Assembly (NCBI GenBank): GCA_964428395.1
Contig: CAYRYB010000001.1
Span: 139,971 to 203,970, forward strand
Length of the DNA: 64,000 nt
Direction of reading: 5' to 3'
From: an uncultured Methanosarcinales archaeon
GTDB taxonomy: Archaea > Nanobdellota > Nanobdellia > Woesearchaeales > SKGA01
Shown here in pieces: positions 1,435 through 48,308 of the stretch; the first letter of the stretch is position 1, and each line of letters opens with the position of its first letter. The notes under the pieces were generated by a model. It saw only the letters and a list, made by a program, of their open reading frames with translations. It had not been told where the DNA came from and ran no database searches. The position numbers were made by a program, and so were the translations under genes.

Positions 1435-1436
1435 TA

Positions 1437-1892: not shown

Positions 1893-1967
1893 ATCTTTTT
1901 ACCTCGAAAAAAGCGTTATAAACTTTATTAACTATTCTTGAGTAGTTCGCGCTACCTTCAGCTACAC

Positions 1968-13005: not shown

Positions 13006-15426
13006 TTGGCTTTCATGAAAAATGTACATCGCGAAGTTCTTAAAGCTGCCAAAAAAGAATTAGAAGAAACAGGCACGCTTACTAAAAATACACAAACTAA
13101 AGTTAAAAGTATTGCTCGTAAAGCATCTCCAAAAAACTGGCCCAAAGGAAACTCTCAAAAAAAACAAGCATATATTCTTCTTAGAAAGGCAAACAAGAAT
13201 GCGCTGAGAAGATGGTCATATACGTTTCATCGGCGATACGATTCTTGGTCTGAAAAAGAAAAAAACAAGCAAAAAAATGGACGTAAACAATCTGTTGAGC
13301 GTGGAAAAAATTACTTGGTAGGAAACGCTCTACGAGAAGCATTAACAATTTCTCATTCCGAGTCATTCCCGCAAGCCTTCAAAAAAGCATTATATGCACC
13401 ATTTGGCAAATATTCCTTTCTTGAAGATATTGTTGGTAATGAAACAGTTCAACTCATTAAGGGCGTGCAAAGAAACGATGAAGTTTCAATAAGCAGACTT
13501 GTTGAGAAAAAAACTCCTTATTTTGCAAAAAAACTTAGCAAAGATATTTCTTGGGAAGACAGAAAACAAATTGCTGCAAAAGCGATTTATACTGCAGCAA
13601 AAAAAGCATTGTTTGTCGGTGGATTTAATAAATATATCCTGTTTCATATAACTCGTGAACTAAGTAACTATTACGCAGATACACCTAAGAATGATTTAGT
13701 CCCCTTTAGTCATCGTTTAGAAACTGAAATTGCAGATGTTCATTCTATTCGCGCATTTGATGATGACACCTATGAAACGTTGCTTGAGCAGTCAGAGATT
13801 GCTAACAGAAATAGTTTCATTAATCTTGGTGATGGTGTTGTTCCTTACAAACTTCTCAAGCGGTTTAATAAACTTATTTCTGATGAGGGAAAATCAATGA
13901 AGCTGTTTATGAAAGCGTTTAAAGAAGAACTTCTTTCATACCAAAAAAGCAAAAAAGATTTTGTTGCAAGTGCTCAACAGAAAATCATTTCTTTATTTCA
14001 TCAAGATGCATTACAAAAAGGCAAACAGATTACAAGAGAAGTCGTTGAAAACACATTACAAAATGTTATCAAGAAATATAATAATGAGCACTTGTACGCT
14101 GATGAAGAACCTAGAGAAGAATTTTATGCGCTCTTTTTAAAAGAGCGAAAAAGAATTATTACTAAAGAAGTAAAGCGATTACTCAGCGAGCAAAAAAAAG
14201 CGATTCAAATTAAAGAACAGTATCATAACGTTAAATATCTACATTTGCTTGCTCGAACACTCACTGATGTGGAAGAAGTTATTTCTTACTCTAACCTTTT
14301 AGCTACAGAAGAAGAGAGAATTAGCGAAATAAAAAGCGAAGCTGTTGATACAGCTAAATATGTTTCTGGCTTTGAAGCAATGCCTTGGGAATTTAAGAAA
14401 GCTGCTGTTCTTGCAAAAATAAATAACACTCATTTTTGGGGACCGACTTTAGATCCATCTGCAATGAGAAACTATTGTTTACATGAGGAAGATTTAGAAT
14501 CATTAGCACAATTTGGCGATGTAAAAACTATTCTAGCAAGATTGTATCAAGAAGAAATAATTCTCTCAAGCTCTATTGGCAAAGGAGTGTTTAAAGCAGG
14601 GCAAAGAAATCCTAGTGAAGCGTTTAACGAATGGGGCGTTGTTGCATTTAATAATCATCCTTTATTACAAGAAGCGAGCGCTCCACTCTCGTCTAAATCT
14701 CATCAACTTGAAGAAATAATTATTACTAATGAATATACATGCGCGTTTTTAACTCCAATTATTTCTTCAAATCTCGATTCATGGAGTTATTCTTTTGAAG
14801 ATAGTGAAGAAAAGATAAAAAAAGCAAAAGAAAAATTAGAGCAGGCAAAAAAAGAAGCAATTACTGTTGTAAAAGAATACGAAAAAAATAATGTTCCTGT
14901 TCCACCATTAGTAAGAAATATTCAAGGCTACTTTGATGATGATTTAAAATACTCGCTTGAAATGAGATTAACAGATGATAACAAAGTAATTATTTCTCCT
15001 GAAGCATTCTATACGTTCAATAATAAGAACGGTTCATCTTGGGAAGTAGAAGAATATTTTGAAAATGAAAGAGAACGACTTGAGCAAAAGTACGCAAATG
15101 AAAAACAAAAAGAGTACGCGTTTACAGCAAAAATGCTTGAGCGGTTAAATAGGTTCTGGACAAGATTTTTAGATCCTGACGATCCAACACCAAAACAATT
15201 ACTTGCAAAATTTGATGATTGGGGAAGCAAGAAAGTAAGAGAAATAGGCGATTTCATTGAGGAAGCAAGAAAAGAGAGGGCCAAAAATTATGAAATAGAG
15301 CAACAAAAAATTCATCCTGAAGAAGAAATAGATAAAAGCGATTATCATGTAATCATTATTCCAAGAAAAGAAACTCAAGAAGCATTGTATTCGAATGAAG
15401 AATTTGATAAAGATTTACCTTTCTAA
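13006..15426 (+). CDS. large hypothetical K/E-rich protein (806 aa)
   Basis: Long ORF with strongly charged low-complexity segments. No recognised catalytic motifs. Confidence 0.5.
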   Translation: MAFMKNVHREVLKAAKKELEETGTLTKNTQTKVKSIARKASPKNWPKGNSQKKQAYILLRKANKNALRRWSYTFHRRYDSWSEKEKNKQKNGRKQSVERGKNYLVGNALREALTISHSESFPQAFKKALYAPFGKYSFLEDIVGNETVQLIKGVQRNDEVSISRLVEKKTPYFAKKLSKDISWEDRKQIAAKAIYTAAKKALFVGGFNKYILFHITRELSNYYADTPKNDLVPFSHRLETEIADVHSIRAFDDDTYETLLEQSEIANRNSFINLGDGVVPYKLLKRFNKLISDEGKSMKLFMKAFKEELLSYQKSKKDFVASAQQKIISLFHQDALQKGKQITREVVENTLQNVIKKYNNEHLYADEEPREEFYALFLKERKRIITKEVKRLLSEQKKAIQIKEQYHNVKYLHLLARTLTDVEEVISYSNLLATEEERISEIKSEAVDTAKYVSGFEAMPWEFKKAAVLAKINNTHFWGPTLDPSAMRNYCLHEEDLESLAQFGDVKTILARLYQEEIILSSSIGKGVFKAGQRNPSEAFNEWGVVAFNNHPLLQEASAPLSSKSHQLEEIIITNEYTCAFLTPIISSNLDSWSYSFEDSEEKIKKAKEKLEQAKKEAITVVKEYEKNNVPVPPLVRNIQGYFDDDLKYSLEMRLTDDNKVIISPEAFYTFNNKNGSSWEVEEYFENERERLEQKYANEKQKEYAFTAKMLERLNRFWTRFLDPDDPTPKQLLAKFDDWGSKKVREIGDFIEEARKERAKNYEIEQQKIHPEEEIDKSDYHVIIIPRKETQEALYSNEEFDKDLPF

Positions 15427-15715: not shown

Positions 15716-16879
15716 TTAAAATAATCCGTTCATTAGCAGTCCTAATACTGCTTTTGCTACAAAAAATATTGCAAGAGCCACTACTGCAAAAATGGGAAAT
15801 TGTTTTAATCCTTCTTTGCTGTTTCCTGTTCTTATGGTTGCTACAATTGCTGAGGCAAAATAGGAGGTTATGGTTAACAACACTATTGCAAATGTTGTAA
15901 AATCACTCATAGAAATACTATCTCCTGAAAAACTCATAGATAATCCTCCTGTTCCTGCTGAGCCCGTGCCTTGGAACGAGGAAGCAATATGTGTTATGAC
16001 TGAAAGGAGTTGTGAACTTAGAGCAAATAATGCTGGTGCTGCTGCAATGGATGCAATAGCTATAAAAATAACATACGTTGTAACGCTTGCGCTTATTTCT
16101 TTTTTCATAAGTCGTGTTGCTTGTATGTTTTCACTTATCTTTGTAAGTAATTCTGCTATCTCACCTCCACTTCTTAGTCCTGCTATAATAAGGTTTATGG
16201 CTTCTTTTAGAATTCGAGAATTATACCTTCGAGTAAAGTCAATGAGTGCATCTTCTAATTCACTTCCTGTAAATGTTGCTTTTGCTATCTCTTCCATTTC
16301 TGTTGCAAGAACACCAAAACGTGGCCGAACAGCGTACCATAATGCTCTGTCTATAGGCATTCCCGCACTAATATTTGCAGATGCTAATTGTAAAAAATCC
16401 GGTAGAACTTCTTCTATTTGTTTTGTTCGTTGATAAATTTTTATGTCAAAATAAATAAAAACAACTAAAAGAGAAATAAGATATAATCCTAAAAGCACTA
16501 TTGTCCAAAGTAATAAAAGAACAGTGAGCACATCAGAAAATACTGATCCTTTAGCTATTGAAAAGACAATAATGAAAAAAGAAAAAATTCCCATGATAAT
16601 AAGATCTGCAAAAAGAAGTTTCTTATTAAATTCCTTTGGTGATTCATCGTGTCCAGCACGTTCCAAAAATTCTCGAAGCAAAAGAGACATGCGTCGTCGT
16701 TTATACTTTTGTTTGGTATCAAACTTACTATGTACTTTTGAGCCTGTTTGTCTAAATGCTTCTTGAAGGGTTGATGGTTTTCCTTTTTTTTTCTTATGAA
16801 AAGAAGATGTTTTTATTTTAGGAAGTTTCATCTTTGCAAAAACAGACTTCACTTTTCCTAAAAATTCTTTTAGAGTCAT
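15716..16879 (-). CDS. type IV pilus / archaellum-type membrane platform protein (TadC/FlaJ-like) with lysine-rich N-terminal tail
   Basis: 387 aa and polytopic membrane protein. Lies directly downstream of the FlaI/PilB-family ATPase and a second platform-like ORF. Paired cytoplasmic T2SSF-like segments. N-terminal ~90 aa are K-rich. Confidence 0.6.
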   Translation of the reverse strand: MTLKEFLGKVKSVFAKMKLPKIKTSSFHKKKKGKPSTLQEAFRQTGSKVHSKFDTKQKYKRRRMSLLLREFLERAGHDESPKEFNKKLLFADLIIMGIFSFFIIVFSIAKGSVFSDVLTVLLLLWTIVLLGLYLISLLVVFIYFDIKIYQRTKQIEEVLPDFLQLASANISAGMPIDRALWYAVRPRFGVLATEMEEIAKATFTGSELEDALIDFTRRYNSRILKEAINLIIAGLRSGGEIAELLTKISENIQATRLMKKEISASVTTYVIFIAIASIAAAPALFALSSQLLSVITHIASSFQGTGSAGTGGLSMSFSGDSISMSDFTTFAIVLLTITSYFASAIVATIRTGNSKEGLKQFPIFAVVALAIFFVAKAVLGLLMNGLF

Positions 16880-16880
16880 T

Positions 16881-17681
16881 TTATTGCATGCTAATTGGTG
16901 GCCGTGATGATTTAATCATTGAAAGAAACATAAGTTGTACAAATCCTATGAATCCTGCTAGTGCAAGGAGAACACCTAAGCTTAAGGTTAGGCCTATAAA
17001 CGTTGCTAAAACAACAAGCATGGTTGTTCCTAAGGACGGTACGATTACCGCTATCATCATGTAAAACATTGCCAAAGGATTAAGTTTCTTACCATACTCT
17101 TTTACCGAGATTTCTTGTTCTTTGACAATTTGATTAATAACAGAGTTTAATGCTGGCGCAACATCTGAGCCGGTTTTCAATGAGTTAAGAAGTTGCCAGA
17201 GTATTCGTTGTAATGTTGGAGATGGTGAGTTAATAAGTACCTCATTTATTGCATCTTCAATGCTTGTTCCTAAATAAACCTTATTCACTATATCTCCAAA
17301 AAAAGATCCTACAACAGCATAATTTTGCTCAATACTTTCAAATGCTTTATGGATAGGAACTCCTGAGTGTAATTCAATAATTAAGAAACGTCCAGCGAAA
17401 ACTATTTCTTCGTCTATTTTTCTTCGTAGTTGTTCAATTTTTACATCTACATATTTAAGCATGTACAAAAAAGCAAGTGGGGTAATCATTGCTGTAAGAA
17501 GTAAAAGAATATAGATTTTTGGAAAGAATGCAAAAATAACAAAACTAAATGCCGCTGAAAGCATAAACGCTGTCATGAAAATTTTTTTTACGTAAAACTC
17601 TGCGCTTTCGTTAATGGATGCCTGTCGAAGCCTTGCTTCTAAACCAGGGATTTTTTTTGCTAATCGTTTGTAAATTTTCAT
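16881..17681 (-). CDS. type IV pilus membrane platform protein (TadB/FlaJ N-half-like)
   Basis: 266 aa with multiple TM helices. Start/stop abuts 15716..16879. Its position in the pilus operon matches the split TadB/TadC arrangement. Confidence 0.55.
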   Translation of the reverse strand: MKIYKRLAKKIPGLEARLRQASINESAEFYVKKIFMTAFMLSAAFSFVIFAFFPKIYILLLLTAMITPLAFLYMLKYVDVKIEQLRRKIDEEIVFAGRFLIIELHSGVPIHKAFESIEQNYAVVGSFFGDIVNKVYLGTSIEDAINEVLINSPSPTLQRILWQLLNSLKTGSDVAPALNSVINQIVKEQEISVKEYGKKLNPLAMFYMMIAVIVPSLGTTMLVVLATFIGLTLSLGVLLALAGFIGFVQLMFLSMIKSSRPPISMQ

Positions 17682-17692
17682 GGTTCATTCTT

Positions 17693-19687
17693 TTATTGAC
17701 GTAAAAATTCTTTATTTGCATTGACAAATTTCATCAGGTTTTCTTTATCAGTATAATATTCTGCCATTATTCGACCAACATCATCAACAGTGTCAATATT
17801 ATGCTTGAGAAGATAATTTAAGATTTTTACTTTTTCTGCTAAGTTATTTCTAACTTCTTTTGTGGTCATTCCAGTAAATGTTTTTATGGTTTCAAAAAAG
17901 TGAGATGTTTTACTCTTATCTCGCATATATCCTTCAGTAACTGTTCCTAGTGAACTAACAAGTTTATCTTTTCGAGGATCATACTGCATAATAATATTTG
18001 ATTCGCCATTAGGAAGAATTTCTGCAATTTGAAAGGTTCGTCGTTTTCCTGTTCTTCTATTTCTAAATTGCACGATGATAAGAGAAATTGCTGAAAGCAT
18101 TATTTTTGGGACATCTAACGGAGGATTTGTAAGTCTATCTACTGCTTCTTTTGCATTATTTGCATGAAACGTTGCATACACAGAGTGTCCTGTATGAATT
18201 GCTTCAAAAAGCGTTTCTGTTTCTCGTTTTCGTCGTACTTCTCCAACAATTATTCTATCCGGTCGCATACGTAGTGAGTTAACAAGCAAATCTCCCATGC
18301 TTATTTCTCCTCGTCCTTCAGCATTCGGTAAGACAGTATTTAGAGGTACCCAATGAAGAAATTTTGGCAGACGTATCTCACGAGTATCTTCTATGCTAAT
18401 AACTCGTTGATTTGGAGGGAAAAAACTTGCAAAAACATTAAGTGCAGATGTTTTACCAGACGCAGTTCCTCCAGCAATTATTGCACTCATTTCATATTGT
18501 ATTGCAGACCAAATAAGTGCTGCTGCTTCTGAATTTATTGTGCCACTTCGTAAAAATTTAGTAATAGTCCATGGGTCTCGACTAAATTTACGAATAGTAA
18601 TAGTGTTTCCTGCAGTGCTTACAGGACTTAAGGTTGCATTGACTCTGTCTCCTGCATCTAAGTGAGCATCTAGTAATGGTGTTAAAACTGTTATTTGTCT
18701 TCCCACTTTTCTTCCTATGATACTTGCGTAATGTCTTATCTGGTTTTCATCTTTAAGATACGTTGTTGTTTTCAACCAACCATGTGTTTTATGATATACC
18801 CATACGGGCTCTGATGCTTGATTGATAACGATTTCTTCAAGGTTTTGATCGTCCATAATGAGTTCTAAATTTCCCAAACCAAGACTTTTTATCTTAAGAT
18901 AAGATGTAAGAAAATGTGTTGTTTCCATATCGCTGTCTGGCAGATATTTTTCAATAAGAATTTTGATGAGTTCTTCAAATTTATCTTCCACTTGAGTTGT
19001 TTTTTTTGTATCACTAATATCTGCAATACCCAAGCTAACTTTTTTAATGAGTTCTTGTCTTATTTTTTCTAAGATAAGTTTTGTTGTTGGTGTTATTGAA
19101 GATATTTCAAGGTCATAAATAGGAACATACTCTCGTTTGTCTTTTTTTATAACAACATAAATAGGAATTTGTCCAGACATGTATTGATATTCATCTATTC
19201 GATGTGCTATTTGTTCCGGACGATGAGGCATGTTTGCACTTCCTCCTTTCAAAGCTTCGTTTGTAGGTTTTTCTGCTTGTTTTAAAATCGTCGATTTGCT
19301 ATCTAACTTTTCTAATTTCGTTTCAATGGGTTTAGACGTGTCCTGCGATGAAGTTTCCTGCAAAGATGCATGTTTTGTTTTGTTTGATAGAAAATTTCCT
19401 AAAAAACCTTTCTTTTTTCGTTCTTCTAATGATTTTTCTGTTGAAAATTTTTCTGTTGAAAGTGATGTAAATGCATCGGCTTCTGCTTTAGTGTATGTGG
19501 GCGTCGTCCTTGTCACAGGAGAAGATAAAGAAGTAAAAGATGATGATTTCTTTTTTGTTGATGATCTTACAGGCTTTCTTGGTACTTTTTTTAATACTTT
19601 TGATTTTTTTGGTGCTTTAGTTGACCTTTTAAAAACGCTTTTGTTAGTTGTTGATTTTTTTGTTTTCTTTTTCTTAGTAGTTGCCAA
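17693..19687 (-). CDS. type IV pilus/archaellum assembly ATPase (FlaI/ArlI-PilB-VirB11 family) with ~150-aa K/S/T-rich N-terminal extension
   Basis: Walker A AGGTASGKTSALN. Asp/His boxes (ISIEDTREI, ..GEVR). The C-terminal half is conserved as in FlaI/TadA. The N-terminus MATTKKKKTKKSTTNKS... is low-complexity. Confidence 0.9.
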   Translation of the reverse strand: MATTKKKKTKKSTTNKSVFKRSTKAPKKSKVLKKVPRKPVRSSTKKKSSSFTSLSSPVTRTTPTYTKAEADAFTSLSTEKFSTEKSLEERKKKGFLGNFLSNKTKHASLQETSSQDTSKPIETKLEKLDSKSTILKQAEKPTNEALKGGSANMPHRPEQIAHRIDEYQYMSGQIPIYVVIKKDKREYVPIYDLEISSITPTTKLILEKIRQELIKKVSLGIADISDTKKTTQVEDKFEELIKILIEKYLPDSDMETTHFLTSYLKIKSLGLGNLELIMDDQNLEEIVINQASEPVWVYHKTHGWLKTTTYLKDENQIRHYASIIGRKVGRQITVLTPLLDAHLDAGDRVNATLSPVSTAGNTITIRKFSRDPWTITKFLRSGTINSEAAALIWSAIQYEMSAIIAGGTASGKTSALNVFASFFPPNQRVISIEDTREIRLPKFLHWVPLNTVLPNAEGRGEISMGDLLVNSLRMRPDRIIVGEVRRKRETETLFEAIHTGHSVYATFHANNAKEAVDRLTNPPLDVPKIMLSAISLIIVQFRNRRTGKRRTFQIAEILPNGESNIIMQYDPRKDKLVSSLGTVTEGYMRDKSKTSHFFETIKTFTGMTTKEVRNNLAEKVKILNYLLKHNIDTVDDVGRIMAEYYTDKENLMKFVNANKEFLRQ

Positions 19688-19718
19688 TATACGTCACCCT
19701 CTTTTTACTAAAAAAACT

Positions 19719-20870
19719 TTAATTTCCTCGAATAAAACTGATAAGAGTATTTATTTTTGATGAAAGTTTCTCTTTTCGTTTTTCATACACAGCTAGAGTT
19801 TTTTCTATATCTCCTAATTTATCAGCCACTGCCGGATGGTTGCTAAGAGCATTAAACACTTCTACTTTTTTCTTCAGCAATTCTAATTCTTGTATTAAAT
19901 TATCCTTCTCTGTTTCTATATTTGAGATTAAATCTCCCGTCTTGATTTTTTTAGCAAAAAGATTCTCAAAACCATCGTAGATTTTCTTTCCTAATTCAGC
20001 GTAATTTTGTACCTCTTGAACCTTTATTTTTGCACTTTTTAAGAGCGTGTCTTGTTGTAACTCAACTTCTTCTCGCTTTGAGCCCACTATCTTTGAAAGT
20101 TTTTTAATACTCTCTTTTTTGTTTTCCTTGATATTGCTAGTAATCGTAAGAATATCTTTTTTTATTTTTTTAATACGCTCTTCAGTTCCCGAGATGTTTT
20201 TGATTTGAGAAGTTAATTCCGTTGAAACAGTGCTCAATTTATTTAAGGATTCTTTTATTGTTTTTTCAGCTTCATCTTTACTAAAACGAAGCTTGGCTAC
20301 ATTCGCTTCAAACGTCTTGAGGCGATCCTCTTCTTTTTTTAGATCGTTTAATGATTGTTGGTATGCCTTATCAAAATTTTCTAATTGACTATCATATTCT
20401 TGAATGAATTGCTTGTAGACTCGTTGTTGTTCTTCTATTTCTTTATCGATATTTTTTTTAAGCTCGTCAAAATGTTCAAGTTCTTTCATTTGTTTTCGAA
20501 CAGTTTCTAGTTCATCCTTGATATGCCCTTGAATATTCACAAACTCTTTTCGGACTTCTTCAAAGCCACTCGTTTCACTATCTATTGCATTAATAGTTGC
20601 ATCAATTTTTCGTTTAAAGGCATCTTTTTGAGAATGAGCTTCTTTTGCCGAGATTTTCACGGTGTCCTCATCAATCTTACGTTCCTCAACGTACATTTTA
20701 GAAAACTTATAAGAAAGAGAGACTACTTTTTCCTTTTCTAAAAGTTCTATCCAGTCTTCAACTACATCCTTTGCAACACCAAGCGTTTTTGCTGCTTGTT
20801 CAGAAGTTAGTTTCTTACGATCGTGAATGAGTTGAACAAGCCGGTCAATACCTGTAGTTATATTCTTCAT
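19719..20870 (-). CDS. wHTH + long coiled-coil protein (pilus-operon accessory; fused counterpart of 1437..1892 + 286..1434)
   Basis: The N-terminal wHTH is similar to ORF 1437..1892. About 300 aa of heptad-rich coiled coil follow. It sits first after the pilin genes and before the ATPase. Confidence 0.55.
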   Translation of the reverse strand: MKNITTGIDRLVQLIHDRKKLTSEQAAKTLGVAKDVVEDWIELLEKEKVVSLSYKFSKMYVEERKIDEDTVKISAKEAHSQKDAFKRKIDATINAIDSETSGFEEVRKEFVNIQGHIKDELETVRKQMKELEHFDELKKNIDKEIEEQQRVYKQFIQEYDSQLENFDKAYQQSLNDLKKEEDRLKTFEANVAKLRFSKDEAEKTIKESLNKLSTVSTELTSQIKNISGTEERIKKIKKDILTITSNIKENKKESIKKLSKIVGSKREEVELQQDTLLKSAKIKVQEVQNYAELGKKIYDGFENLFAKKIKTGDLISNIETEKDNLIQELELLKKKVEVFNALSNHPAVADKLGDIEKTLAVYEKRKEKLSSKINTLISFIRGN

Positions 20871-20939
20871 ACCGATTTAAATATGAATTAACAGGTTAAA
20901 AAAGTTGTGTAACCACTCAAAAAAGAAAAAAGAGCCTTT

Positions 20940-21959
20940 TTATGGACAAGCACTTGCATTAGAATAAGATAATCCATCCACTTCGTAGGTGGTTGCTTCG
21001 TTTTGCGGAATAACAAAATAAAGAGATGCAGGCAAACCAGTAACATTACAAAGTTTTACACCTCCTAAATCATTAAAGTAAATAAAATCCACTTTAATCC
21101 TGTTTTCATAGACATCTTTGTCCTGCGCAGCAATATCTCCTATATTTACTATGCTTTGTATACCATAAGGGCTTGGAGTATTATTATTTTCAAAATGTTG
21201 TAAAAAGGAGGGCGCATTTGTTGAAGCAATATAATACGATTTGTTTGCGAGAAGTTGTAAATTGGTTGTATCATTATCGCTTGTATTTACTAAAAAGAGA
21301 AAGGGCGCTTCTCGTACCGTATTTGGAACAGTATTTTCTGTAAATTTACTATACAATGGATCTCGTAAATCAAAAATAGGTACTTGAGTAGTATACGTTT
21401 TTTCAAAATGCCATGATGCAACATGTTTAGTGTCGGAAATATTAACTTTTGTATGAACGGCAACTGTTATCTTCCACGGATCTTCTTGTGAAAGCGTAAT
21501 ATTAAGAACAGTAATATTTGCTCGTAAACCAATTTGACTTGCTAAGAAATTAACACGAGCAAGATAATCTGAAAAACTTGACGCGTTCATTAAAGTTACA
21601 TTAGTTTGGTTAATAGTGCCATTAAAGAATGCTTCCTCAAATGCAGTCGCTGTATTGTTAAAAAACCCTGCAGAGGTTGATGCGATATAATCTTCTAAAG
21701 AAAGCAACGCTCGAAAGGATGAGATATATGTTGCTCGATGTACATCTTGATTAAAGTCGGTTACAAAATCATTCATGAGCTTTACGCGACTTTCGTAAAT
21801 GTCTTGTTTGTCTTGAAAGGTATATCTGTTCGTTGAAAGGAAAACAAATATGATAATAGTTGCAAGGATTGTTGCGGTTACCAAATAGGTGAATCCTTTT
21901 TTGTTAAATTGTTTCATTGTCATGTCCATACTGTTGTACTTACCGTTGTTGGTCCCCAT
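20940..21959 (-). CDS. pilin-like N-glycosylated protein (class III signal peptide; true start probably at internal MTMKQFNKKG|F)
   Basis: KKG|FTYLVTATILATIIIFVFL is a prepilin-like motif. Many N-x-S/T sequons. Ends in Cys. Confidence 0.55.
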   Translation of the reverse strand: MGTNNGKYNSMDMTMKQFNKKGFTYLVTATILATIIIFVFLSTNRYTFQDKQDIYESRVKLMNDFVTDFNQDVHRATYISSFRALLSLEDYIASTSAGFFNNTATAFEEAFFNGTINQTNVTLMNASSFSDYLARVNFLASQIGLRANITVLNITLSQEDPWKITVAVHTKVNISDTKHVASWHFEKTYTTQVPIFDLRDPLYSKFTENTVPNTVREAPFLFLVNTSDNDTTNLQLLANKSYYIASTNAPSFLQHFENNNTPSPYGIQSIVNIGDIAAQDKDVYENRIKVDFIYFNDLGGVKLCNVTGLPASLYFVIPQNEATTYEVDGLSYSNASACP

Positions 21960-24649
21960 AAATAAGGTACGCCATTTATCAATGTTATCGTGATTTCTAA
22001 ATCTGCTTCTGTTAAATCCACGATGACCTTGCCATTTTTATCAGGGTCTAATTGTTCAAGCAAGTGGTACGTTGCAGAGTCATAGGCATCATCGCTATTA
22101 TAAACAATACTCGTGTTTGTATAGTTACATTGTTTGCTTCCAGAATAACTTGTTGGGATAAGTAAATGTGAGAAAAGCTCTGATTCTGATTGTATGGTCC
22201 AATTACAACCATCATGATACGTAAAAGTTTGACTTCGTGGTGTTGATGAATTAATTAATGCAGTGTAAATAAGTGTGTTATTGGGTGAACAAATTGAATT
22301 GTTAAGTGGCGAGTCCCCTACCTTCATAACAATTGTATTATCTGTTCCAGGAACCAATGTCGTTGAAGGTATTTGTATAAGAAAAGGATCTCCTAGTAAA
22401 ACATAATCATTGCCATAATCACTTAAATTAAAAACAACCACATTATTAACGGTTACTAACTTTGTCCAATGCTTAGAAGAAAATGATGTAACATAAGCAT
22501 TAGTTATTTCTATTCCCTCAGGCAGAGGAATAGTTGCGCTGCAACCACCAAATTGAGCAGACTCAAATGTTAAGGATATTTTTCCTTGTTTATCTACTTG
22601 TGTTAATGGTTCATAGTATAAATCAATGTATGAATTATTATACAGGTGCGCTAGGGAGTAATTACCAACAATATTAAGTGTTTGCGAAGAATAATTTGCT
22701 ACAACGAGTATTTGTTCAGAAATATTCTTGTATATTTGTGCAAGCTGTGAAACATTGGTTGCATTATAGTAAAGCGAGGAATTACAAGCAATTTGTTGCA
22801 TGACTGATTGTCCTGAAGCAGTCATTCCTTCACTAAATCCTATTGCATAAACAGTAATGTTATCTGCGCATGCTTGCTGCGCTGCAGCTATTGCATCGTT
22901 TTGTGATTGCGTTCCATCATTGCCAACAGAAGAATATGTGTGTAAATCACCTCCACAATGTCGCGTTGGTTCACCATCACTTAAAACAACCATAAATTTT
23001 TTGTTCGTTGAACTATTTATCGAATCTCTAGCCCTATTAATTCCACAACAGGTGCATGTTCCGCCTCCTGCAGAATAAGTGTCAATCTCTGAATCTAAAA
23101 CTCCTTTTACATTGGTTAATGCTGTTTGAGGATTTGCGTTTGTTGAAAAATCTACAAGACCAATTTTGTGAAGAAGCGAGTCATTAAGAATAGTTTCTAC
23201 AAAAAGATGATCTGCTTCTTTTGCAATGTCTAAGAGTGTTTTATTACAGGTTGTAGTTGTTTTGTTATAGATAACATGATTTTTTGTTGTTGAAGTTCCG
23301 CCACATTCATTAGAAACGCAAGTTGTTGTATAAGGGCATTCTGTTGAAAACCACCATACCCACCACTTATATTCATATTTGCAGTATTCCACATCATGCG
23401 TGTAATATTCTCCACAATCATTCATACTTCCTGAAACGTCCGTTACGAGAAATGAATCTGATGGTTTGCCTGCGTTAACAACAGTAATGTTTGAAAGATT
23501 GGTCGTTCCTAAGCGCAATGGTATTTCTGTTGGTGGAAGAGTTTGATTTATTCTTGAATAAAGAATATTTTGCGTGATATTTTGTCCTGGAGAAATAAAA
23601 ATAGTTTCATTAGCTAAAGTTACAAACGTATCATATTCATTATACAACGTCAAATTCATAGTCCAATTGCGTATTAGTCCTTGCGCGCCAAAGGCATCAT
23701 ACATGTTTAAGAATCCATCAATTTGTGGGAAGAAATATCTTCTGTAACCAGGTGTTACAGGATCATTTACTGTGTCCGTTGTATACACCACTTTAAGAAA
23801 TCCTCCTGAAATATACGATTCATTTAAATCGCTAGTAAACGCTAAAGTAATATTATTTTTTCCTGCTTGAAAAGAAGTATTGCAAGATATAATGTTCCAT
23901 AAATTTATTTGTCCTACTTGTCCCGTTCTTGGTCCTCCACAAGGATTTTCATTAATATAGAATTGAAATGTTCCTGGTGTTTCTATTTTAAGGTCTGTTG
24001 ATAAAAGTCGTGAAGTAGAAAAATCAGCTGGTAGCGTTAAAGATACCGTGATATTTCCCTGTCCGTAAAATCCTCCAAAATAAGCATAGGCATTTGTTTT
24101 TTTATTGCGTACTTTTTTAAGATAGGCCGAAGAACTTGAACCAGTAATAGGTGCACCTTTTGCAATTCCAGATATCATTCGTCTTGTTATAACCAAATTT
24201 TGTATTGGTGAATCATTTCGTTGAAAGATAGAATCGTTCTCAATTGAAAATTTAATATTCAAATTTGGTGGAAGTGAGGCATTGGTTATTATTTCAAAGA
24301 GTTCTTTTGCTTTGGCAGTTTTATTTAATGCCCAATATTCACCAATTTGTTCTAAAACGGTATTGTTGACATTTGTTATGTTGCCCGTTGTTATCTCACT
24401 AGTTACAAAAGAACTATTCATTTCATTGATTGTTATCGCTCCTAAAACATTAAGAAGATCTTGCGTGATAAACGATTTCTCATTTATTGATGGCTCATAA
24501 TAGGTAACAGAAAGTAATGTTGCTGCAACACCAACTAATAAAAGTCCTGCTAAAAGCGCGTCCATTGAGTAATAAATTCCTTTTTTCTTTATCATTTTAC
24601 TCCCATGAATAAACAATAAGCTGTAATAATGATGCGTTGTAGGCAACAA
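21920..24649 (-). CDS. large pilin-like adhesin with vWA domain (class III signal peptide; true start probably MIKKKG|I at about 24595)
   Basis: KKKG|IYYSMDALLAGLLLVGVAATLL is a prepilin motif. The MIDAS motif LVTDVSGSMND is present, with downstream vWA-like T and D positions. About 60 N-glycosylation sequons and Cys-rich segments. Confidence 0.7.
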   Translation of the reverse strand: MLPTTHHYYSLLFIHGSKMIKKKGIYYSMDALLAGLLLVGVAATLLSVTYYEPSINEKSFITQDLLNVLGAITINEMNSSFVTSEITTGNITNVNNTVLEQIGEYWALNKTAKAKELFEIITNASLPPNLNIKFSIENDSIFQRNDSPIQNLVITRRMISGIAKGAPITGSSSSAYLKKVRNKKTNAYAYFGGFYGQGNITVSLTLPADFSTSRLLSTDLKIETPGTFQFYINENPCGGPRTGQVGQINLWNIISCNTSFQAGKNNITLAFTSDLNESYISGGFLKVVYTTDTVNDPVTPGYRRYFFPQIDGFLNMYDAFGAQGLIRNWTMNLTLYNEYDTFVTLANETIFISPGQNITQNILYSRINQTLPPTEIPLRLGTTNLSNITVVNAGKPSDSFLVTDVSGSMNDCGEYYTHDVEYCKYEYKWWVWWFSTECPYTTTCVSNECGGTSTTKNHVIYNKTTTTCNKTLLDIAKEADHLFVETILNDSLLHKIGLVDFSTNANPQTALTNVKGVLDSEIDTYSAGGGTCTCCGINRARDSINSSTNKKFMVVLSDGEPTRHCGGDLHTYSSVGNDGTQSQNDAIAAAQQACADNITVYAIGFSEGMTASGQSVMQQIACNSSLYYNATNVSQLAQIYKNISEQILVVANYSSQTLNIVGNYSLAHLYNNSYIDLYYEPLTQVDKQGKISLTFESAQFGGCSATIPLPEGIEITNAYVTSFSSKHWTKLVTVNNVVVFNLSDYGNDYVLLGDPFLIQIPSTTLVPGTDNTIVMKVGDSPLNNSICSPNNTLIYTALINSSTPRSQTFTYHDGCNWTIQSESELFSHLLIPTSYSGSKQCNYTNTSIVYNSDDAYDSATYHLLEQLDPDKNGKVIVDLTEADLEITITLINGVPYLWGPTTVSTTVWT

Positions 24650-25097
24650 GACGTTGTGTTGTTACTAAATGTTTATAGGTAATTGAGGATAAATCTGGTT
24701 CACAAGTAAGCGCATCATATGCTAAAGGATATCCATGTAAACAGTTTGTAAGATTGATGATTTGCGTGTTATTTTTAAAAAAGAAAATATATTCATTGGT
24801 TACATGATACAATGTTTTTGTATGATTATAATCAAGAGCATCAAATTGTGTTAATTTAGTCAGGTTAAGACGATAATCATCAGTAATTCCTGGAAGTAAT
24901 ACTGTTGTTACACTCCAATTATTTGGATAACCATCCAAAACAAGTTGATCAGAAATATAAACATTATTTCTGTAAAGCTCTGTGTATGCTCCTGCAGGTA
25001 GAATATCTATAATTATTTTTATTGCAAGAAGTAAAAGAAAGATAAAACCAACGAGGCCTAAAATAAAATCAACGGTAAACATTTGTGCTTTGCTCAT
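24597..25097 (-). CDS. minor pilin (class III signal peptide)
   Basis: N-terminus MSKAQ|MFTVDFILGLVGFIFLLLLAI. Confidence 0.6.
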   Translation of the reverse strand: MSKAQMFTVDFILGLVGFIFLLLLAIKIIIDILPAGAYTELYRNNVYISDQLVLDGYPNNWSVTTVLLPGITDDYRLNLTKLTQFDALDYNHTKTLYHVTNEYIFFFKNNTQIINLTNCLHGYPLAYDALTCEPDLSSITYKHLVTTQRLVAYNASLLQLIVYSWE

Positions 25098-25118
25098 TTT
25101 TATTCTCTTTAGTAAGGT

Positions 25119-25514
25119 TTAGTTTAGTTGTAAAACTCCATTTTGCTTTCGCAAAACATTTGTTCCTTTTATCATGCTTCCATTAATAACAGGAATAACA
25201 TAAAATAATTCTTGATGTGAAAAAAGAATACTCATATATCCATTGCTTGCACTTGTATTGCCAATAACGATAGTATAATTCATATCATTTATTTTTTCAG
25301 GAACGCTAAAGAATCGCTCATAGCCATCCTGTACTTGCGTTCCTAAGAGGAGCTCTTGTTGCAAGCTTTTTCCCAAGTCATTTAGTTGTTCGTACGTGTT
25401 CTGTGTTGTTTTATCCGCTGAAAGGGTGAGCGCTGCCCCTATAACTATGAAAAGGAAAAAAAATCCTGTTATTCCTAAAAGAATAAATTCTATAGATACT
25501 TGTGCTCGTTTCAT
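25119..25514 (-). CDS. pilin (class III signal peptide)
   Basis: N-terminus MKRAQ|VSIEFILLGITGFFFLFIVIGAA. Confidence 0.65.
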   Translation of the reverse strand: MKRAQVSIEFILLGITGFFFLFIVIGAALTLSADKTTQNTYEQLNDLGKSLQQELLLGTQVQDGYERFFSVPEKINDMNYTIVIGNTSASNGYMSILFSHQELFYVIPVINGSMIKGTNVLRKQNGVLQLN

Positions 25515-25516
25515 TT

Positions 25517-25957
25517 TTATGTGTCCGTAAGAAGAACATCGTCAGCTTGTGCTTTTATCACAATAAAATGAGGTCCTTCGAATTTTTTTAATGATCCACT
25601 AAGATTAATAGCAGTCTCTTTAATATAGTCATAATTATACGTTGCCGAAGTCATGTTAAAAATAAGTTCGTTTGACTGCACACTAACGGATTGTATACCT
25701 GAAGGAAATGTTATTCGAACAGTTTTTTGTGCTGGTGGGCCCATAAAATAAACTTCTTGAGCTGCATCAGTAATGAGTGTTGCTGCTCTGTCTAATTGTG
25801 CGTTGGCGATGTCTGATTGTAAATTACTTGTTTGTGTTGTGAAAATGATGATTAAAGGTAACGTCATAAAAAAAGCCACTGAGAAAATGATTAAGTATTC
25901 CATGGCCACTTGACCTTTACACATCCTTTTCATAAAGATAATTGACGCTGAAGGCAT
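25517..25957 (-). CDS. pilin (class III signal peptide; start probably the internal MKRMCKGQ|V)
   Basis: KGQ|VAMEYLIIFSVAFFMTLPLIIIF. Only a 2-nt gap to the downstream pilin gene. Confidence 0.6.
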   Translation of the reverse strand: MPSASIIFMKRMCKGQVAMEYLIIFSVAFFMTLPLIIIFTTQTSNLQSDIANAQLDRAATLITDAAQEVYFMGPPAQKTVRITFPSGIQSVSVQSNELIFNMTSATYNYDYIKETAINLSGSLKKFEGPHFIVIKAQADDVLLTDT

Positions 25958-26043
25958 ATTTAAAGATGATGTCTTTATCGACTAGTTAAAACAAGAAAAA
26001 AAAGTGAATCCTAATGAGATGCAAGAGAAGAAGCAAAGAGAAA

Positions 26044-26072
26044 GAAATAAAGAAAAAAAAGAAAAAAAATAT
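26044..26072 (-). terminator. oligo-T tract (minus strand) immediately after the major pilin stop codon
   Basis: Plus-strand agaaaaaaaagaaaaaaaat equals T-runs on the coding strand 5-30 nt after the TAA at 26077-26079. Archaeal intrinsic terminators are oligo-T runs. Confidence 0.35.
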
Positions 26073-26076
26073 TTAT

Positions 26077-26595
26077 TTACGCGTATTTACCATCTACACT
26101 TCCCGTGTGGGTGATCGTTTGCGTTGTTTCAACATTTGTATAATCCACAGTCAATTCCGCTTTAAATTTATCACCAACAGTAGGGTTTAGACTTGATGGG
26201 TCACAATCCCATTTTAAAAGGAAGGTTCCTCCGTTTGGAATTTGTGTTGTGTCTGCAACAATTGGTGCACCAGAATATGTTCCTGTAATAACAGGGTTAT
26301 TACATTCTACTCCGGTTGCAGGTGAAACATTTCCTGTTAAAGGCAAGGTAATTGCCACACCTTTGTTATTTTTAAATGCTATTTCAATAGAATTGTCAGC
26401 AAGGCTAACTACTGCGTTATCTAAGTTTGCGATTGGTGCAGTGAACGTTGTTCGCTCTGGCAAGAGTTTTTGGGGGCTTAATACACCAAAATATGCCAAT
26501 GCTCCGATTGCCAAAAGTACAACCAAAATTGCCCAACCATACGTCATTAAGAACTCCATGGCCGCTTGTGCTCGTTTTCTCATCATTAAAAACAC
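26077..26595 (-). CDS. probable major pilin (class III signal peptide; likely true start at ATG 26586 rather than the GTG at 26595)
   Basis: N-terminus (M)MRKRAQ|AAMEFLMTYGWAILVVLLAIGALAYFG. The SD-like gaggtg lies 9 nt upstream of the ATG. It is the first gene of the locus, with its own TATA and an oligo-T terminator. Confidence 0.7.
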   Translation of the reverse strand: MFLMMRKRAQAAMEFLMTYGWAILVVLLAIGALAYFGVLSPQKLLPERTTFTAPIANLDNAVVSLADNSIEIAFKNNKGVAITLPLTGNVSPATGVECNNPVITGTYSGAPIVADTTQIPNGGTFLLKWDCDPSSLNPTVGDKFKAELTVDYTNVETTQTITHTGSVDGKYA

Positions 26596-26645
26596 CTCAT
26601 TTTTAGTTAATTTAAGACTATTTACTCCCTACAGAGAGATTTTTC

Positions 26646-26653
26646 TTTATAAA
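26646..26653 (-). promoter_or_regulatory. TATA box (TTTATAAA on the minus strand) about 60 nt upstream of the major pilin start, followed by a GGAGGTG-like SD
   Basis: The minus-strand read is cgaaatgTTTATAAagaaaaatctctctgtagggagtaaatagtcttaaattaactaaaaatGAGGTGtttttaATG. Confidence 0.35.
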
Positions 26654-27367: not shown

Positions 27368-27597
27368 TTTTTTCTTTTATTTTTCTTTGTCAAGAGCGTT
27401 TTTTCCAAAGAAGAAAACATAAGAGCAACACGCAAACAAGCAAGGACAGTTGCACTAAAGAGAAAGTCCAAGAAAACAATCTAGCGGTAGCTTAAACACT
27501 TCTTAGCGTTTAATGCAAATAACTTTTTAGGCAGAGCCAGAACTGACAAACATTTATAAATGACTTCTCGTTCTTCAAACATACAGCAAGTTCTCAT

Positions 27598-27672
27598 AGC
27601 GGGATGGAGCAGCCAGGAGTGCTCGCAGGGCTCATAACCCTGAGGTCGGAGGTTCAAATCCTCTTCCCGCTA
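27598..27672 (+). tRNA. initiator tRNA-Met (anticodon CAU), archaeal type
   Basis: Acceptor AGCGGGA/TCCCGCT with A1:U72, the archaeal initiator hallmark. GGG/CCC triple in the anticodon stem. Loop CTCATAA. 75 nt, no encoded CCA. An upstream TATA-like atttataaa lies at about 27552-27560. Confidence 0.85.
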
Positions 27673-27700
27673 TTTCTTTTCAATTCTTCATCAGAAATAT

Positions 27701-28219: not shown

Positions 28220-29176
28220 CTATTTTAATTCTATTTTTGTCAGAATTTGATCAAAAATTGCAGAATATTTCTTAATATTCTCTCGCATTTTTTTGCAATT
28301 CTCAAAATTAAATTCAAAAGATCCATAGAATATTTTCCCACTATCATCAATAGTTTCAGACTTATGAGCCAATTCATTTCGAGGTGTTATTATTTCTGTA
28401 CAATATGATTCAAAACTAAATGGTGTAGTTAAACCGATTTTGTTTATTACAGTTTCAACCGCTTCACCTTTTTTATGAGTTCCAAAAATAAATTCATCAA
28501 TGAAACTGTTAAATGAACTCCCGGAATATTCTTTTTTCTCTTGTACTAGATCTTTTACGTATAAATTCAAATATTTTTTTAAATCTTTTAGTTTATTAAA
28601 AGACCAATCTACTGTCTTGGTTATTACTTCCTCAATAAAAAAATCAGGAGTCACTAATTCTTTTTCAATAGAGCGACGTAAGATTTTTTTCTTTTTATCA
28701 TCAAGATCAGACACTTCCGCCATAACCAATCCTCGCAAATTTTCAGGATCTTGAATTTTTTTTATAGTACTTAAAAATATTTGTTTAAACTTTTCTAAAA
28801 AGAAATGATCATCACGCTCAGAACAATAAACTCCATCAATTTGTCTTTCACTTATAAGTTTTCTAAGTTTTTCCTCATCAGTTTCTTGATTAGAATAAAA
28901 AAGAACATCGGTATAATGATTACCATCTCGGATGTCTTTTATTATATCAGCACCAGATTCATAATATCCTAAGTCAAAGTCCATTAAAATGATATTATAA
29001 TCACTATATGTTCCATGATCCTCATTAAATTCACTTTTCGTCGAGATTTTTATTATATCTGCATCATTCTCACAGATAAACCCTTCCAATTGAACAATTT
29101 TTACAACTTCTTCACTTAACTCTTCAACCCAGTCTGGATCATCATCAAACCACAGAATTCTATACCTTAACTTCAT
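28220..29176 (-). CDS. response-regulator receiver (REC) domain protein with C-terminal effector-like domain bearing an Rx4H (HEPN-like) motif
   Basis: REC signatures: beta1 RILWFDDDPD (acidic pair) and beta3 IILMDFDLG (phospho-acceptor Asp). The ~200-aa C-terminal domain contains ...ITPRNELAHK (R-N-x3-H). Its stop overlaps the start of the GHKL/HK gene. Confidence 0.6.
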   Translation of the reverse strand: MKLRYRILWFDDDPDWVEELSEEVVKIVQLEGFICENDADIIKISTKSEFNEDHGTYSDYNIILMDFDLGYYESGADIIKDIRDGNHYTDVLFYSNQETDEEKLRKLISERQIDGVYCSERDDHFFLEKFKQIFLSTIKKIQDPENLRGLVMAEVSDLDDKKKKILRRSIEKELVTPDFFIEEVITKTVDWSFNKLKDLKKYLNLYVKDLVQEKKEYSGSSFNSFIDEFIFGTHKKGEAVETVINKIGLTTPFSFESYCTEIITPRNELAHKSETIDDSGKIFYGSFEFNFENCKKMRENIKKYSAIFDQILTKIELK

Positions 29177-31692: not shown

Positions 31693-32992
31693 TTAGACTC
31701 GCCTTTGAACAACAATTACAGTTTAGCTCTGTATTATTACTTTGAGTTATATTAGTAACTTCTCCCTTAATAGATGAGGGCGAGCTTCTTTTTAAATATT
31801 CTTTCAAAACAATGCCTAAAATCTCTCCAAATAGCGGAGGTATAGCATTTCCAATTTGAGTATACCTTGGCACTTCTAATTTTCTGTTTTTTCCACCCGT
31901 AGTGTATTTTCCCTTGAATTCAAAAGTATCGGGGAATGACTGAATTCTTGCATATTCTCGAACAGTTAAAATTCGAGGTTCTTCATAATGAATATAATCA
32001 TCAGGTAGAGTTGTTAAAGTTGGAGATGTCCCATTAGAATCTAAAGGAATTATGCAATGTTTCTTTAGATTAAACTTCTTCTTTAACTCGTCAGAAACAT
32101 TTGTATTTCTATTTGCCTTGCTTAATATGTATCTAAATCGTTTTATTGTTTCAGTTGAATGATTTGGAAAACGATGACTATCAGGATTTGAAGATCGAGA
32201 TAAACCTTTTTTCATCAATGATTGATATGAAGAATTTTTTTTACCATAGAGTCCTGCTTTGAATCGAGGATTGTCTGGAGAATTAATCAACCCATTAGAC
32301 TGAAACAAGTCTCCTATTGCATCCTTTACAGTTGTTTTGCGAGTAATAGGCAAACCTTTCTGCTTTAGAAATTCTTTCTTATATTGATAAATATTCTCAA
32401 ATATGTCTTGGGCTTTACCTTTTTTAGTTCCAATTATAATACATCTTTCCCTTCTTTGTGGTACGCCAAAATCAGAGAAATTTATGATTTTCCAATCAAC
32501 ATCATATCCAAACTCTTTCAATTTGTTAGTGACAATTTCAGAATAAGCAATTCCTCGAGAATTATTTTTTGTTTTAAATCCTATAGTGAACCCCTTAACA
32601 TTTTCAAAAACAATTACTTGAGGTTGTACTAATTCTACAAAAGTTAAATATAATCTCAGAAGAAGATTCCTAGTGTCAGACTCATTTCTACGACCTGCCA
32701 TTGAAAACCCTTGACATGGTGGTCCCCCCACCAGTAAAGTTACGTTTCCTCTTAACGAACGTAATTGATCTGATTTTTCATCTATTAATTCATTAATATC
32801 ATGATTTGACTTTTCCAACCAAGGCACCCATTTAAAGTGCTTTGTCTTATCAATTAAATTAAATTTTAATGTCTCGAAAGCTAAAGAATCTTTTTCAATT
32901 GCAAATAGTCCCTTCCAATTAGCATTATGAAGTCCTAATGAAATGCCTCCACAGCCTGCAAAAATATCTATATAGTTGAAACTAGACTTCAT
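31685..32992 (-). CDS. DNA (cytosine-5)-methyltransferase (Dcm family)
   Basis: Motif I IDIFAGCGGISLGL. Motif IV GGPPCQGFSMAG. Motif VI ENVKGF. Motif X QIGNAIPP. The start of the downstream GHKL/HK gene overlaps by 8 nt. Confidence 0.9.
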   Translation of the reverse strand: MKSSFNYIDIFAGCGGISLGLHNANWKGLFAIEKDSLAFETLKFNLIDKTKHFKWVPWLEKSNHDINELIDEKSDQLRSLRGNVTLLVGGPPCQGFSMAGRRNESDTRNLLLRLYLTFVELVQPQVIVFENVKGFTIGFKTKNNSRGIAYSEIVTNKLKEFGYDVDWKIINFSDFGVPQRRERCIIIGTKKGKAQDIFENIYQYKKEFLKQKGLPITRKTTVKDAIGDLFQSNGLINSPDNPRFKAGLYGKKNSSYQSLMKKGLSRSSNPDSHRFPNHSTETIKRFRYILSKANRNTNVSDELKKKFNLKKHCIIPLDSNGTSPTLTTLPDDYIHYEEPRILTVREYARIQSFPDTFEFKGKYTTGGKNRKLEVPRYTQIGNAIPPLFGEILGIVLKEYLKRSSPSSIKGEVTNITQSNNTELNCNCCSKASLNG

Positions 32993-34666: not shown

Positions 34667-34951
34667 TCATTCTTCCTCCAGTCCAAAACTTTCTACGAAT
34701 CGTATGATTGTTTTGTATTCTGCCAGATAATCATATCCTTTTTTTGTAAGGATATACGTTTTAGAATTATTTTTTCCTTCTTGTTCTTTTACAAAGCCTT
34801 TCTTAATAAGTTCTTTAAGGTAGTCACTCATCATTTGATGTGAAAGGTTTGATTTGTACAAAAGATGCGTTGGCTTTATCTCGCCACCTTTCAATTTAAT
34901 AGCATTGAGAATATCATGTATGATTTCTAAACGTCCTCGTTTTTTACTCAT
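34667..34951 (-). CDS. small archaeal winged-helix protein
   Basis: 94 aa. RLEIIHDILNAIKLKGGEIKPTHLLYKSNLSHQMMSDYLKELIKKGFV is a typical wHTH. Overlaps the upstream membrane-protein gene by 4 nt. Confidence 0.5.
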   Translation of the reverse strand: MSKKRGRLEIIHDILNAIKLKGGEIKPTHLLYKSNLSHQMMSDYLKELIKKGFVKEQEGKNNSKTYILTKKGYDYLAEYKTIIRFVESFGLEEE

Positions 34952-48298: not shown

Positions 48299-48308
48299 CC
48301 TTTACAGC

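Follow-up and report, generated by a model that had tools for sequence, protein, structure and literature searches.

A candidate adhesion-type IV pilus-like locus with a von Willebrand factor A tip-adhesin-like protein in a Woesearchaeota-type DPANN archaeon

In Streptococcus sanguinis, the von Willebrand factor A (vWA) modular pilin PilB has a proven role in adhesion (PMC8179133; PDB 7b7p), and in Caulobacter the vWA minor pilin CpaL/TadG has been modelled at the tip of the Tad pilus (PMC11870444), a system thought to be derived from archaeal Epd-like pili (PMC6668835). A split platform is a hallmark of both the Epd-like archaeal pili and bacterial Tad (Denise et al. 2019; PMC6668835). The archaeal vWA proteins discussed in a type IV pilus context by Makarova (2016) are of the cytoplasmic ArnB type only, and vWA domains are not mentioned in a 2026 census of type IV filament (TFF) systems in archaea (10.64898/2026.04.22.720090). 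Here we describe a locus at positions 15716-26595 of a stretch of 64,000 nucleotides from contig CAYRYB010000001.1 (hereafter the window), which is probably an adhesion-type IV pilus-like (TFF) apparatus of a Woesearchaeota-type DPANN archaeon, complete but for the peptidase and equipped with a vWA tip adhesin. It is a good candidate for the means by which these cells attach to hosts or surfaces. Gene content, domains, the conservation of the metal-ion-dependent adhesion site (MIDAS) and of signal motifs, synteny, extracellular signatures and structural likeness to tip adhesins were computed directly. A non-exhaustive literature search found no paper joining DPANN, pilin and von Willebrand, nor one on a vWA pilin in archaea or on this Woesearchaeal locus, so that the remark in an earlier note on this DNA that vWA tip-adhesin pilins are poorly characterised in archaea holds in the literature searched.

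The locus consists of ten consecutive co-directional open reading frames (ORFs), all on the minus strand, and the same ten genes are called in the source record, a metagenome scaffold of Woesearchaeota type, encoding proteins of 169, 146, 131, 166, 891, 339, 383, 664, 266 and 387 residues. The earlier note, made from the sequence alone, had the coordinates and the single strand right but counted eleven genes. It had also listed four small pilins with class III signals, a 339-residue and a 909-residue pilin-like protein, the latter with a MIDAS-containing vWA domain, a winged helix-turn-helix (wHTH) and coiled-coil protein, a FlaI/PilB-family ATPase and a split TadB/TadC-like platform. We recover each of these components, with later starts likely for the two large pilin-like proteins and a weak wHTH.

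The vWA adhesin candidate is an 891-residue pilin-like protein (MIKKKG/IYYSMDALLAG..., the slash marking the putative cleavage site; 21920..24595, minus strand) as called in the source record; the ORF finder extends the frame to 24649 (909 residues), and the real start is probably at 24595. Its vWA domain (residues ~371-640; 22676..23485, minus strand) is recognised by Pfam (VWA, 1.8e-11), and the segment LVTDVSGSMND provides the DxSxS motif (D386-x-S388-x-S390; 23426-23440) of a full MIDAS made up of D386, S388, S390, T513 and D540, all five of which show no or almost no variation among 60 homologs. In the AlphaFold2 model (predicted local distance difference test, pLDDT, 86.4), a helix at residues 3-29 leads through a low-confidence linker (33-39) into a helical region, after which come beta domains at 113-365, the vWA domain at 379-634 and C-terminal beta domains, with the last 250 residues modelled as beta-sandwich domains.

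Directly after DxSxS, the vWA domain contains a Cys-rich beta-hairpin (residues 394-453; 23237..23416, minus strand), delineated from the model and a homolog alignment, with strands at 394-411, 414-421 and 437-453. This hairpin is the least conserved region of the protein (majority fraction 0.39, compared with 0.50-0.64 elsewhere), among the 60 homologs it spans anything from 24 to 70 residues, and in relatives of ~1270-2000 residues the profile match breaks at positions ~398 and 449/525, that is, at the hairpin. That the least conserved and length-variable segment adjoins the MIDAS, with large insertions there in relatives, suggests from these alignments that it may be a specificity element. 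Long variants of the vWA pilin (1250-2030 residues) keep the N-terminal ~400 and the C-terminal ~360-440 profile positions and carry several hundred added residues at the hairpin site or inside the vWA domain, and one relative has a Laminin_G_3 domain.

The protein also bears the marks of exposure outside the cell. It contains 37 N-x-S/T sequons, 2.4 times the expectation from shuffled sequences (mean 15.2, standard deviation 3.3; z 6.5), a count reached by 0 of 2000 shuffles; the figure of about 60 given in the earlier note was too high, and the enrichment behind its suggestion of heavy glycosylation stands. Within the family, conservation extends to 20 of the sequon columns and 17 of the Cys columns. 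A sequon excess is also found in the 325-residue pilin-like protein described below (14 compared with 5.8 expected) and in the 166-residue protein (6 compared with 1.6), and not in the major pilin, whose single sequon is no more than chance, or in the cytoplasmic proteins. A sequon excess limited to the minor pilin-like proteins, together with the conserved Cys and sequon columns, would fit an extracellular location.

On the basis of its model, the vWA domain is structurally nearest to those of the bacterial pilus-tip adhesins Mfa5, S. sanguinis PilB, SpaC and RrgA. Like PilB, the archaeal protein combines a complete MIDAS vWA module with a pilin-like protein; PilB, however, has a bacterial leader, ~460 residues and a canonical small pilin module preceding the vWA module, with a long alpha-1 helix packed on a beta-sheet, whereas the 891-residue protein has its vWA domain set between further helical and beta domains, shows no recognisable pilin module as modelled, and carries the Cys-rich hairpin as an insert and, as predicted, a heavy load of N-glycans. 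Mfa5 (type V pili of P. gingivalis) and SpaC, RrgA, GBS104 and PitA (sortase pili) likewise carry an adhesive vWA module, but are assembled by strand exchange or sortase, and the likeness extends to the adhesive module only. PilY1/PilC of type IVa pili is, as the archaeal protein would be, a large non-canonical tip-associated adhesin that goes with four or five minor pilins, and some PilY1 proteins have an N-terminal vWA domain (PMC8179133). Pfam did not detect the C-terminal PilY1 beta-propeller domain in the 891-residue protein, whose N-terminus is pilin-like; PilY1, by contrast, is no pilin.

TadG/CpaL, like the 891-residue protein, is large and minor-pilin-like, with a vWA domain broken by a beta-rich insertion directly after DxSxS (PMC11870444), and Tad systems share with this locus a platform encoded by two genes of one T2SSF domain each and a single ATPase. 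The archaeal locus differs in having no secretin, TadZ or Flp-type short pilin, and in the N-then-C order of its platform halves. No TadE/TadG Pfam domain was detected in the 891-residue protein at E<=0.1, and a tblastn search of the vWA domain against plasmids gave no TadG-like match and one unrelated S-layer-homology match. Judged from modelled structure, the likeness to TadG/CpaL may reflect either homology or convergence. Membership of the PilB or TadG/CpaL families is not supported, given the lack of a TadE/TadG domain and a leader that is not of the bacterial type; what the locus presents is the theme of the vWA modular pilin in an archaeal, DPANN-wide form.

The case for a pilus rests further on the N-termini. 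Six proteins of the locus start like class III signal substrates, with a hydrophobic helix preceded by a short basic leader whose last residue is G or A, and the four small ones have K/R-G/A-Q at the N-terminus (MRKRAQAAMEF, CKGQVAMEY, MKRAQVSIEF and MSKAQMFTVDF). Across 85 related loci, 92-98% of the homologs in each of the six families have [KR]-[GAS] ahead of a hydrophobic helix, and no member of either cytoplasmic control family does. Cleavage is presumably likelier here after G/A, which leaves Q at +1, than after Q, where the earlier note had placed it, an assumption that we take from EppA-type substrates.

Three of the small proteins are encoded side by side upstream of the vWA gene. Minor pilin A, a 146-residue ORF (...CKG/QVAMEYLIIF; 25517..25957, minus strand; Pfam Class_IIIsignal E 0.0049), is present in 71 of the 85 related loci, and its homologs with a detected signal site have Q at +1 in 59/68 and E at +5 in 59/68. 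Minor pilin B (131 residues, MKRA/QVSIEFILLG; 25119..25514, minus strand; Class_IIIsignal E 0.0075) is found in 68 of the loci, with Q at +1 in 56/65 such homologs and E at +5 in 55/65. The combination of Q at +1 and E at +5 is common to minor pilins A and B and the major pilin. Minor pilin C (166 residues, MSKA/QMFTVDFILG; 24597..25097, minus strand; 75 of the 85 loci) has Q at +1, and D at +6 in 53 of 71 homologs with a detected site. The 891-residue protein has a hydrophobic residue rather than Q at +1. Its family N-terminus aligns in hhalign with those of the 325-residue and 166-residue families; weak BLAST matches had suggested that it might be a fusion of smaller pilins, an idea that we dropped because only the N-terminal signal segment aligns.

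These N-termini bear directly on the main rival explanation, in which the type IV pilus machinery is genuine but the 891-residue protein is held in the membrane by an uncleaved signal-anchor; it would then work as an adhesin on the cell surface, or sit at the base of the pilus as an anchor or a factor in envelope traversal, as had once been suggested for TadG. We regard this as possible, though not probable. The model, with its helix, flexible low-confidence linker and no recognisable pilin module, would suit an anchored protein, as would the very large globular part (~860 residues); no peptidase was found in the DNA scanned, and the hypothesis that TadG anchors the pilus is cited in Makarova 2016. 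Yet in 77 of 81 homologs [KR][GA] stands directly before the hydrophobic helix, and 74 of 77 have D at +6, an arrangement unusual for a simple anchor, and the D+6 motif is common to the 891-residue protein and minor pilin C. The 891-residue gene, moreover, lies within the minor-pilin block in nearly all 85 loci, and TadG itself has been found in pilus fibre preparations, with CpaL modelled at the tip (PMC11870444). Our reading is that the 891-residue protein would be processed and built into the filament.

The fifth member of the minor-pilin block is a 325-residue pilin-like protein (MKQFNKKG/FTYLVTATIL...; 20940..21917, minus strand). The ORF finder extends its frame to 21959, giving 339 residues, but translation probably begins at the ATG at 21917, immediately past the upstream stop. 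In 74 of the 85 related loci its gene comes after the vWA gene. The family has no Pfam relative and none in the PDB by profile search of solved structures, and all of its 331 relatives are called 'hypothetical protein' and come from Woesearchaeota.

The candidate major pilin is encoded at the upstream end of the locus (26077..26586, minus strand) as a 169-residue protein, MMRKRA/QAAMEFLMTYGWAIL..., and an identical 169-residue protein is present in the source scaffold. As the earlier note had pointed out, this first gene has signals of its own: a TATA-like TTTATAAA at 26646-26653 and a Shine-Dalgarno GAGGTG at 26593-26598 form a putative promoter and leader (26593..26653, minus strand), and two T8 tracts directly past the stop codon (26041..26069, minus strand) are a likely archaeal terminator. 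These signals suggest that the major pilin is a separate transcription unit; in the related loci the position and strand of the gene vary, and it is often tandemly duplicated. The protein has 5596 relatives, some named 'UPF0333 family' by JGI, and residues 9-34 are almost invariant across 37 homologs. Its AlphaFold2 model (pLDDT 87.7) shows a helix at 2-31 and then a beta-sandwich, and the mature protein would comprise ~163 residues with an Ig-like domain; Foldseek returned generic Ig-like matches only.

Downstream of the pilin-like genes lies the machinery. A 383-residue cytoplasmic protein (19719..20870, minus strand; 46 of the 85 loci), winged-helix-like over residues ~1-65 and then a long coiled coil, has no transmembrane segment and no sequon excess. 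T6, G7, D9, L30, W40 and L44 are invariant in 31 homologs, HTH_24/HTH_29 match weakly in 5-6 members, and the PDB matches are to coiled coils only. The next gene encodes a 664-residue assembly ATPase of the FlaI/PilB/TadA family (17693..19687, minus strand; Pfam T2SSE 2.5e-31, weak PilB3_C), whose closest solved relatives are A. fulgidus GspE2 (2oap; 5.9e-66), FlaI (2.5e-53) and CpaF (1.9e-46). It begins with a low-complexity Lys/Ser/Thr-rich extension of ~160 residues that is shorter in the ATPases of relatives (531-596 residues). A similar Lys/Ser/Thr-rich N-terminal extension is found in a MoxR AAA_3 ATPase elsewhere in the window (54045-55976, plus strand; residues 1-330), which is unrelated to the pilus ATPase.

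The NCBIfam scores of this ATPase, with FlaI as the best model (248 bits, 2e-73) ahead of the TadA family (189 bits) and BasE (139 bits), might suggest that the locus is a degenerate archaellum (motility) operon. The FlaI score is, however, far under the equivalog cut-off of 550, the platform is split and the subunits carry Q at +1. In agreement with the earlier note, scanning the 64-kb window uncovered no KaiC-like FlaH and no FlaF/G, nor any FlaC/D/E/X or archaellin gene. We therefore reject the archaellum, which we consider extremely improbable, on the FlaI score below the cut-off and the lack of accessory genes in the window. One or two KaiC/FlaH-like ATPase genes do stand beside the pilus genes in ~11 more distant related loci, several of which are without the 383-residue coiled-coil gene, and this hints at alternative accessory modules.

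The platform is encoded by two adjacent genes with one T2SSF domain each: a 266-residue protein (16881..17681, minus strand; Pfam T2SSF 2.8e-14) that aligns to residues 21-226 of the 484-residue UpsF, and a 387-residue protein (15716..16879, minus strand; T2SSF 3.6e-13) that aligns to residues 269-479. The two are paralogous to each other (6.7e-13). Since they match the N- and C-terminal halves of the two-domain UpsF, the platform was split by fission, with the halves colinear. The census places split platforms in its system 1 and, in some DPANN, in subsystem 4A, and reports system 1 in 'a few DPANN' (Sivabalasarma and Albers 2026; 10.64898/2026.04.22.720090). With the system 1/Epd pilus of Methanococcus maripaludis (clade 1 of Makarova 2016), this locus has in common a pair of platform genes, several minor pilins, pilins with Q at +1 and large accessory proteins that resemble adhesins. 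The Epd locus, however, has its own peptidase (EppA/EpdA), a short major pilin and adhesin-like proteins with DUF2341/galactose-binding rather than vWA domains, whereas here there is no peptidase in the locus or in 86 related loci, and the major pilin is long, with its Ig-like domain. Unlike Epd and Tad systems, the window also holds no secondary KaiC/FlaH-like or TadZ-like ATPase. By its split platform and its pilins with Q at +1 the locus may be system 1/Epd-like, with subsystem 4A, which has two platform genes in some DPANN, as the alternative.

A second, paralogous type IV pilus-like locus lies nearby, at window positions 286-3523 (minus strand), and extends past the left edge. It holds pilin-like genes of 173 and 345 residues, the latter related to the 339-residue protein at 3.6e-7, and genes for a 151-residue wHTH and a 382-residue coiled-coil protein, which together are like a split version of the 383-residue protein. 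Past the window edge follow a 492-residue ATPase, 53% identical to the 664-residue one and without its Lys/Ser/Thr-rich extension, and two T2SSF half-platform genes. This second locus has neither a vWA gene nor a major pilin gene.

The presence of such a neighbour is relevant to a further explanation, namely that the apparatus is a short pseudopilus, a bindosome-like or secretion-like display of class III-signal proteins, or a device for transferring DNA or cytoplasm on hosts. DPANN archaea rely on host-derived material, which would favour such a device. Functions of this type occur in the TFF superfamily (PMC6668835; 10.64898/2026.04.22.720090), and the machinery next door, having two pilin-like genes only, implies that the two systems may have diverged in function. 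Nevertheless, the locus is linked with a dedicated and highly conserved major pilin whose gene is transcribed separately and often duplicated, its largest subunit matches adhesins, and no substrate-binding-protein, nuclease or DNA-binding domain was detected in the locus proteins with Pfam and NCBIfam. We accordingly give this explanation only a small chance.

Several points weigh against the locus being an adhesion pilus with a vWA pilin at its tip. The model of the 891-residue protein lacks a canonical pilin module, going from the N-terminal helix and its low-confidence linker straight to helical and beta domains, and hhalign found no homology of this protein to the small pilins beyond the N-terminal segment. 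The Pfam Class_IIIsignal model matches two proteins only, minor pilins A and B, both below threshold, and the major pilin has no significant match to any solved pilin, either by profile search of solved structures or by Foldseek. The peptidase is a further point. The earlier note had reported no prepilin peptidase in the window, and an ORF scan for transmembrane content and a six-frame scan for the GxGD motif likewise found no A24 peptidase in these 64 kb. Nor did an A24/class III signal peptidase turn up in the 10 kb to the left of the window or in the 86 related loci, and precomputed Pfam tables for ~64 kb of the scaffold list no peptidase. With an A24 peptidase in none of these, processing of the pilins is a prediction. 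A 224-residue protein (34948-35622, minus strand) with six predicted transmembrane helices and a weak DUF6442 match only was the sole protein outside the locus with at least four predicted transmembrane helices; it was ruled out as the peptidase for having no Asp.

The reading of the locus as an adhesion pilus draws in turn on its distribution. Relatives of the 891-residue protein occur in at least 367 species-level genomes, the best 80 of which are almost all labelled Woesearchaeota, Pacearchaeota or Nanoarchaeota/Nanoarchaeia. More than 120 full-length homologs, named 'VWA domain-containing protein', come from Woesearchaeota, Nanoarchaeota or Nanobdellota metagenome-assembled genomes, and 790 cluster representatives (50% identity) match the profile at E<=1e-30. 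The block order 146-131-166-891-339 is nearly invariant over the 85 species-level related loci, and the machinery block usually lies downstream of the pilin block and is sometimes inverted upstream of it. That almost all of the 85 loci keep this block order next to the machinery suggests that the locus acts as a functional unit, and on this comparative evidence it is a conserved signature of a whole archaeal class and not a peculiarity of one genome.

The locus appears to form three transcription units: the major pilin, the block 146-131-166-891-325, and the machinery block. A T6-C-T6 tract in the intergenic region between the last two (20871..20939, minus strand), read from the sequence, is likely to be a terminator/promoter boundary. 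A scan for sigma-70 promoters and intrinsic terminators gave fewer matches than chance and was set aside as inapplicable to archaea. Flanking genes for tRNA-Ser and tRNA-Met raised the idea of a genomic island, which is ruled out by a G+C content of ~0.33-0.35 that is the same as in the surroundings and by synteny of the neighbours with a relative. Genes for a family-B DNA polymerase, a beta-CASP nuclease and a proteasome subunit lie upstream of the locus both here and in a 1.07-Mb relative, and this synteny of housekeeping neighbours indicates that the locus belongs to the core genome.

From these observations we infer a scheme for pilin processing, filament incorporation, tip position, glycosylation, ligand and host attachment. 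The 169-residue protein would form the filament shaft as the major pilin; a class III signal peptidase encoded elsewhere would cleave the pilin-like proteins behind G/A. The five low-abundance pilin-like proteins of the block 146-131-166-891-325 would form an initiation and tip complex, their hydrophobic N-terminal helices taking them into the filament. Being bulky, putatively glycosylated and disulfide-rich, the 891-residue subunit could sit only at the filament's distal end. The protein with the weak wHTH and the coiled coil, the hexameric ATPase and the two-piece membrane platform would drive polymerisation of the filament from the membrane. The metal ion of the vWA MIDAS at the tip would bind an acidic group of a ligand, for which a protein on the surface of a host cell, or some other surface, is the most plausible candidate, with the variable hairpin beside the MIDAS setting the binding specificity.

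The window contains several further features. A MoxR (AAA_3)-DUF58-membrane vWA operon of the Bat/aerotolerance type (54045-57876, plus strand) is a second, unrelated vWA system. Beside the tRNA-Met gene (27597-27673), an islet at 28220-32992 (minus strand) encodes a C5 cytosine DNA methyltransferase (PADLOC MTase_II, 6.5e-86) whose gene overlaps that of an 839-residue HATPase_c_3 protein, as well as a 318-residue protein without a family match; G+C content is lowest here (0.29), and the islet may serve restriction-modification or defence. Between the proteasome gene and tRNA-Ser lies an 806-residue Lys/Glu-rich ORF (13006-15426, plus strand) with no Pfam or PADLOC match, and the matching upstream region of the 1.07-Mb relative has no gene of comparable size. 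The gene for the family-B DNA polymerase (3819-7403, plus strand) is interrupted by an intein, with an Intein_splicing match between two DNA_pol_B matches in Pfam. Two clusters of large proteins with N-terminal hydrophobic segments, at 45600-53535 and 59034-63943 (both minus strand) and including a 1433-residue CARDB-domain protein, probably encode cell-surface proteins.

Woesearchaeota and related lineages rank with the most abundant of the uncultured archaea and are presumed to be host-dependent, and we know of no attachment mechanism described for them. The locus offers a concrete candidate for attachment: one conserved locus, spread over the species-level genomes counted above, with an identifiable adhesive subunit whose predicted metal site (D386/S388/S390/T513/D540) is defined and which has a variable, putative specificity loop, all of it amenable to experiment. 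It carries over to archaea the concept of modular pilins, which until now has been documented in bacteria, and its split platform and vWA minor pilin add two Tad-like traits to the debate on the archaeal origin of Tad pili. A bolder proposal, which we consider speculative and rather doubtful, is that the 891-residue vWA pilin, whose hypervariable insert adjoins the MIDAS, is the host-recognition determinant at the tip of a dedicated pilus of Woesearchaeales/Pacearchaeales episymbionts and the archaeal homologue of TadG/CpaL. If this were true, the combination of a vWA tip adhesin and a split platform would predate bacterial Tad pili and would have been present in an ancestral archaeal system.

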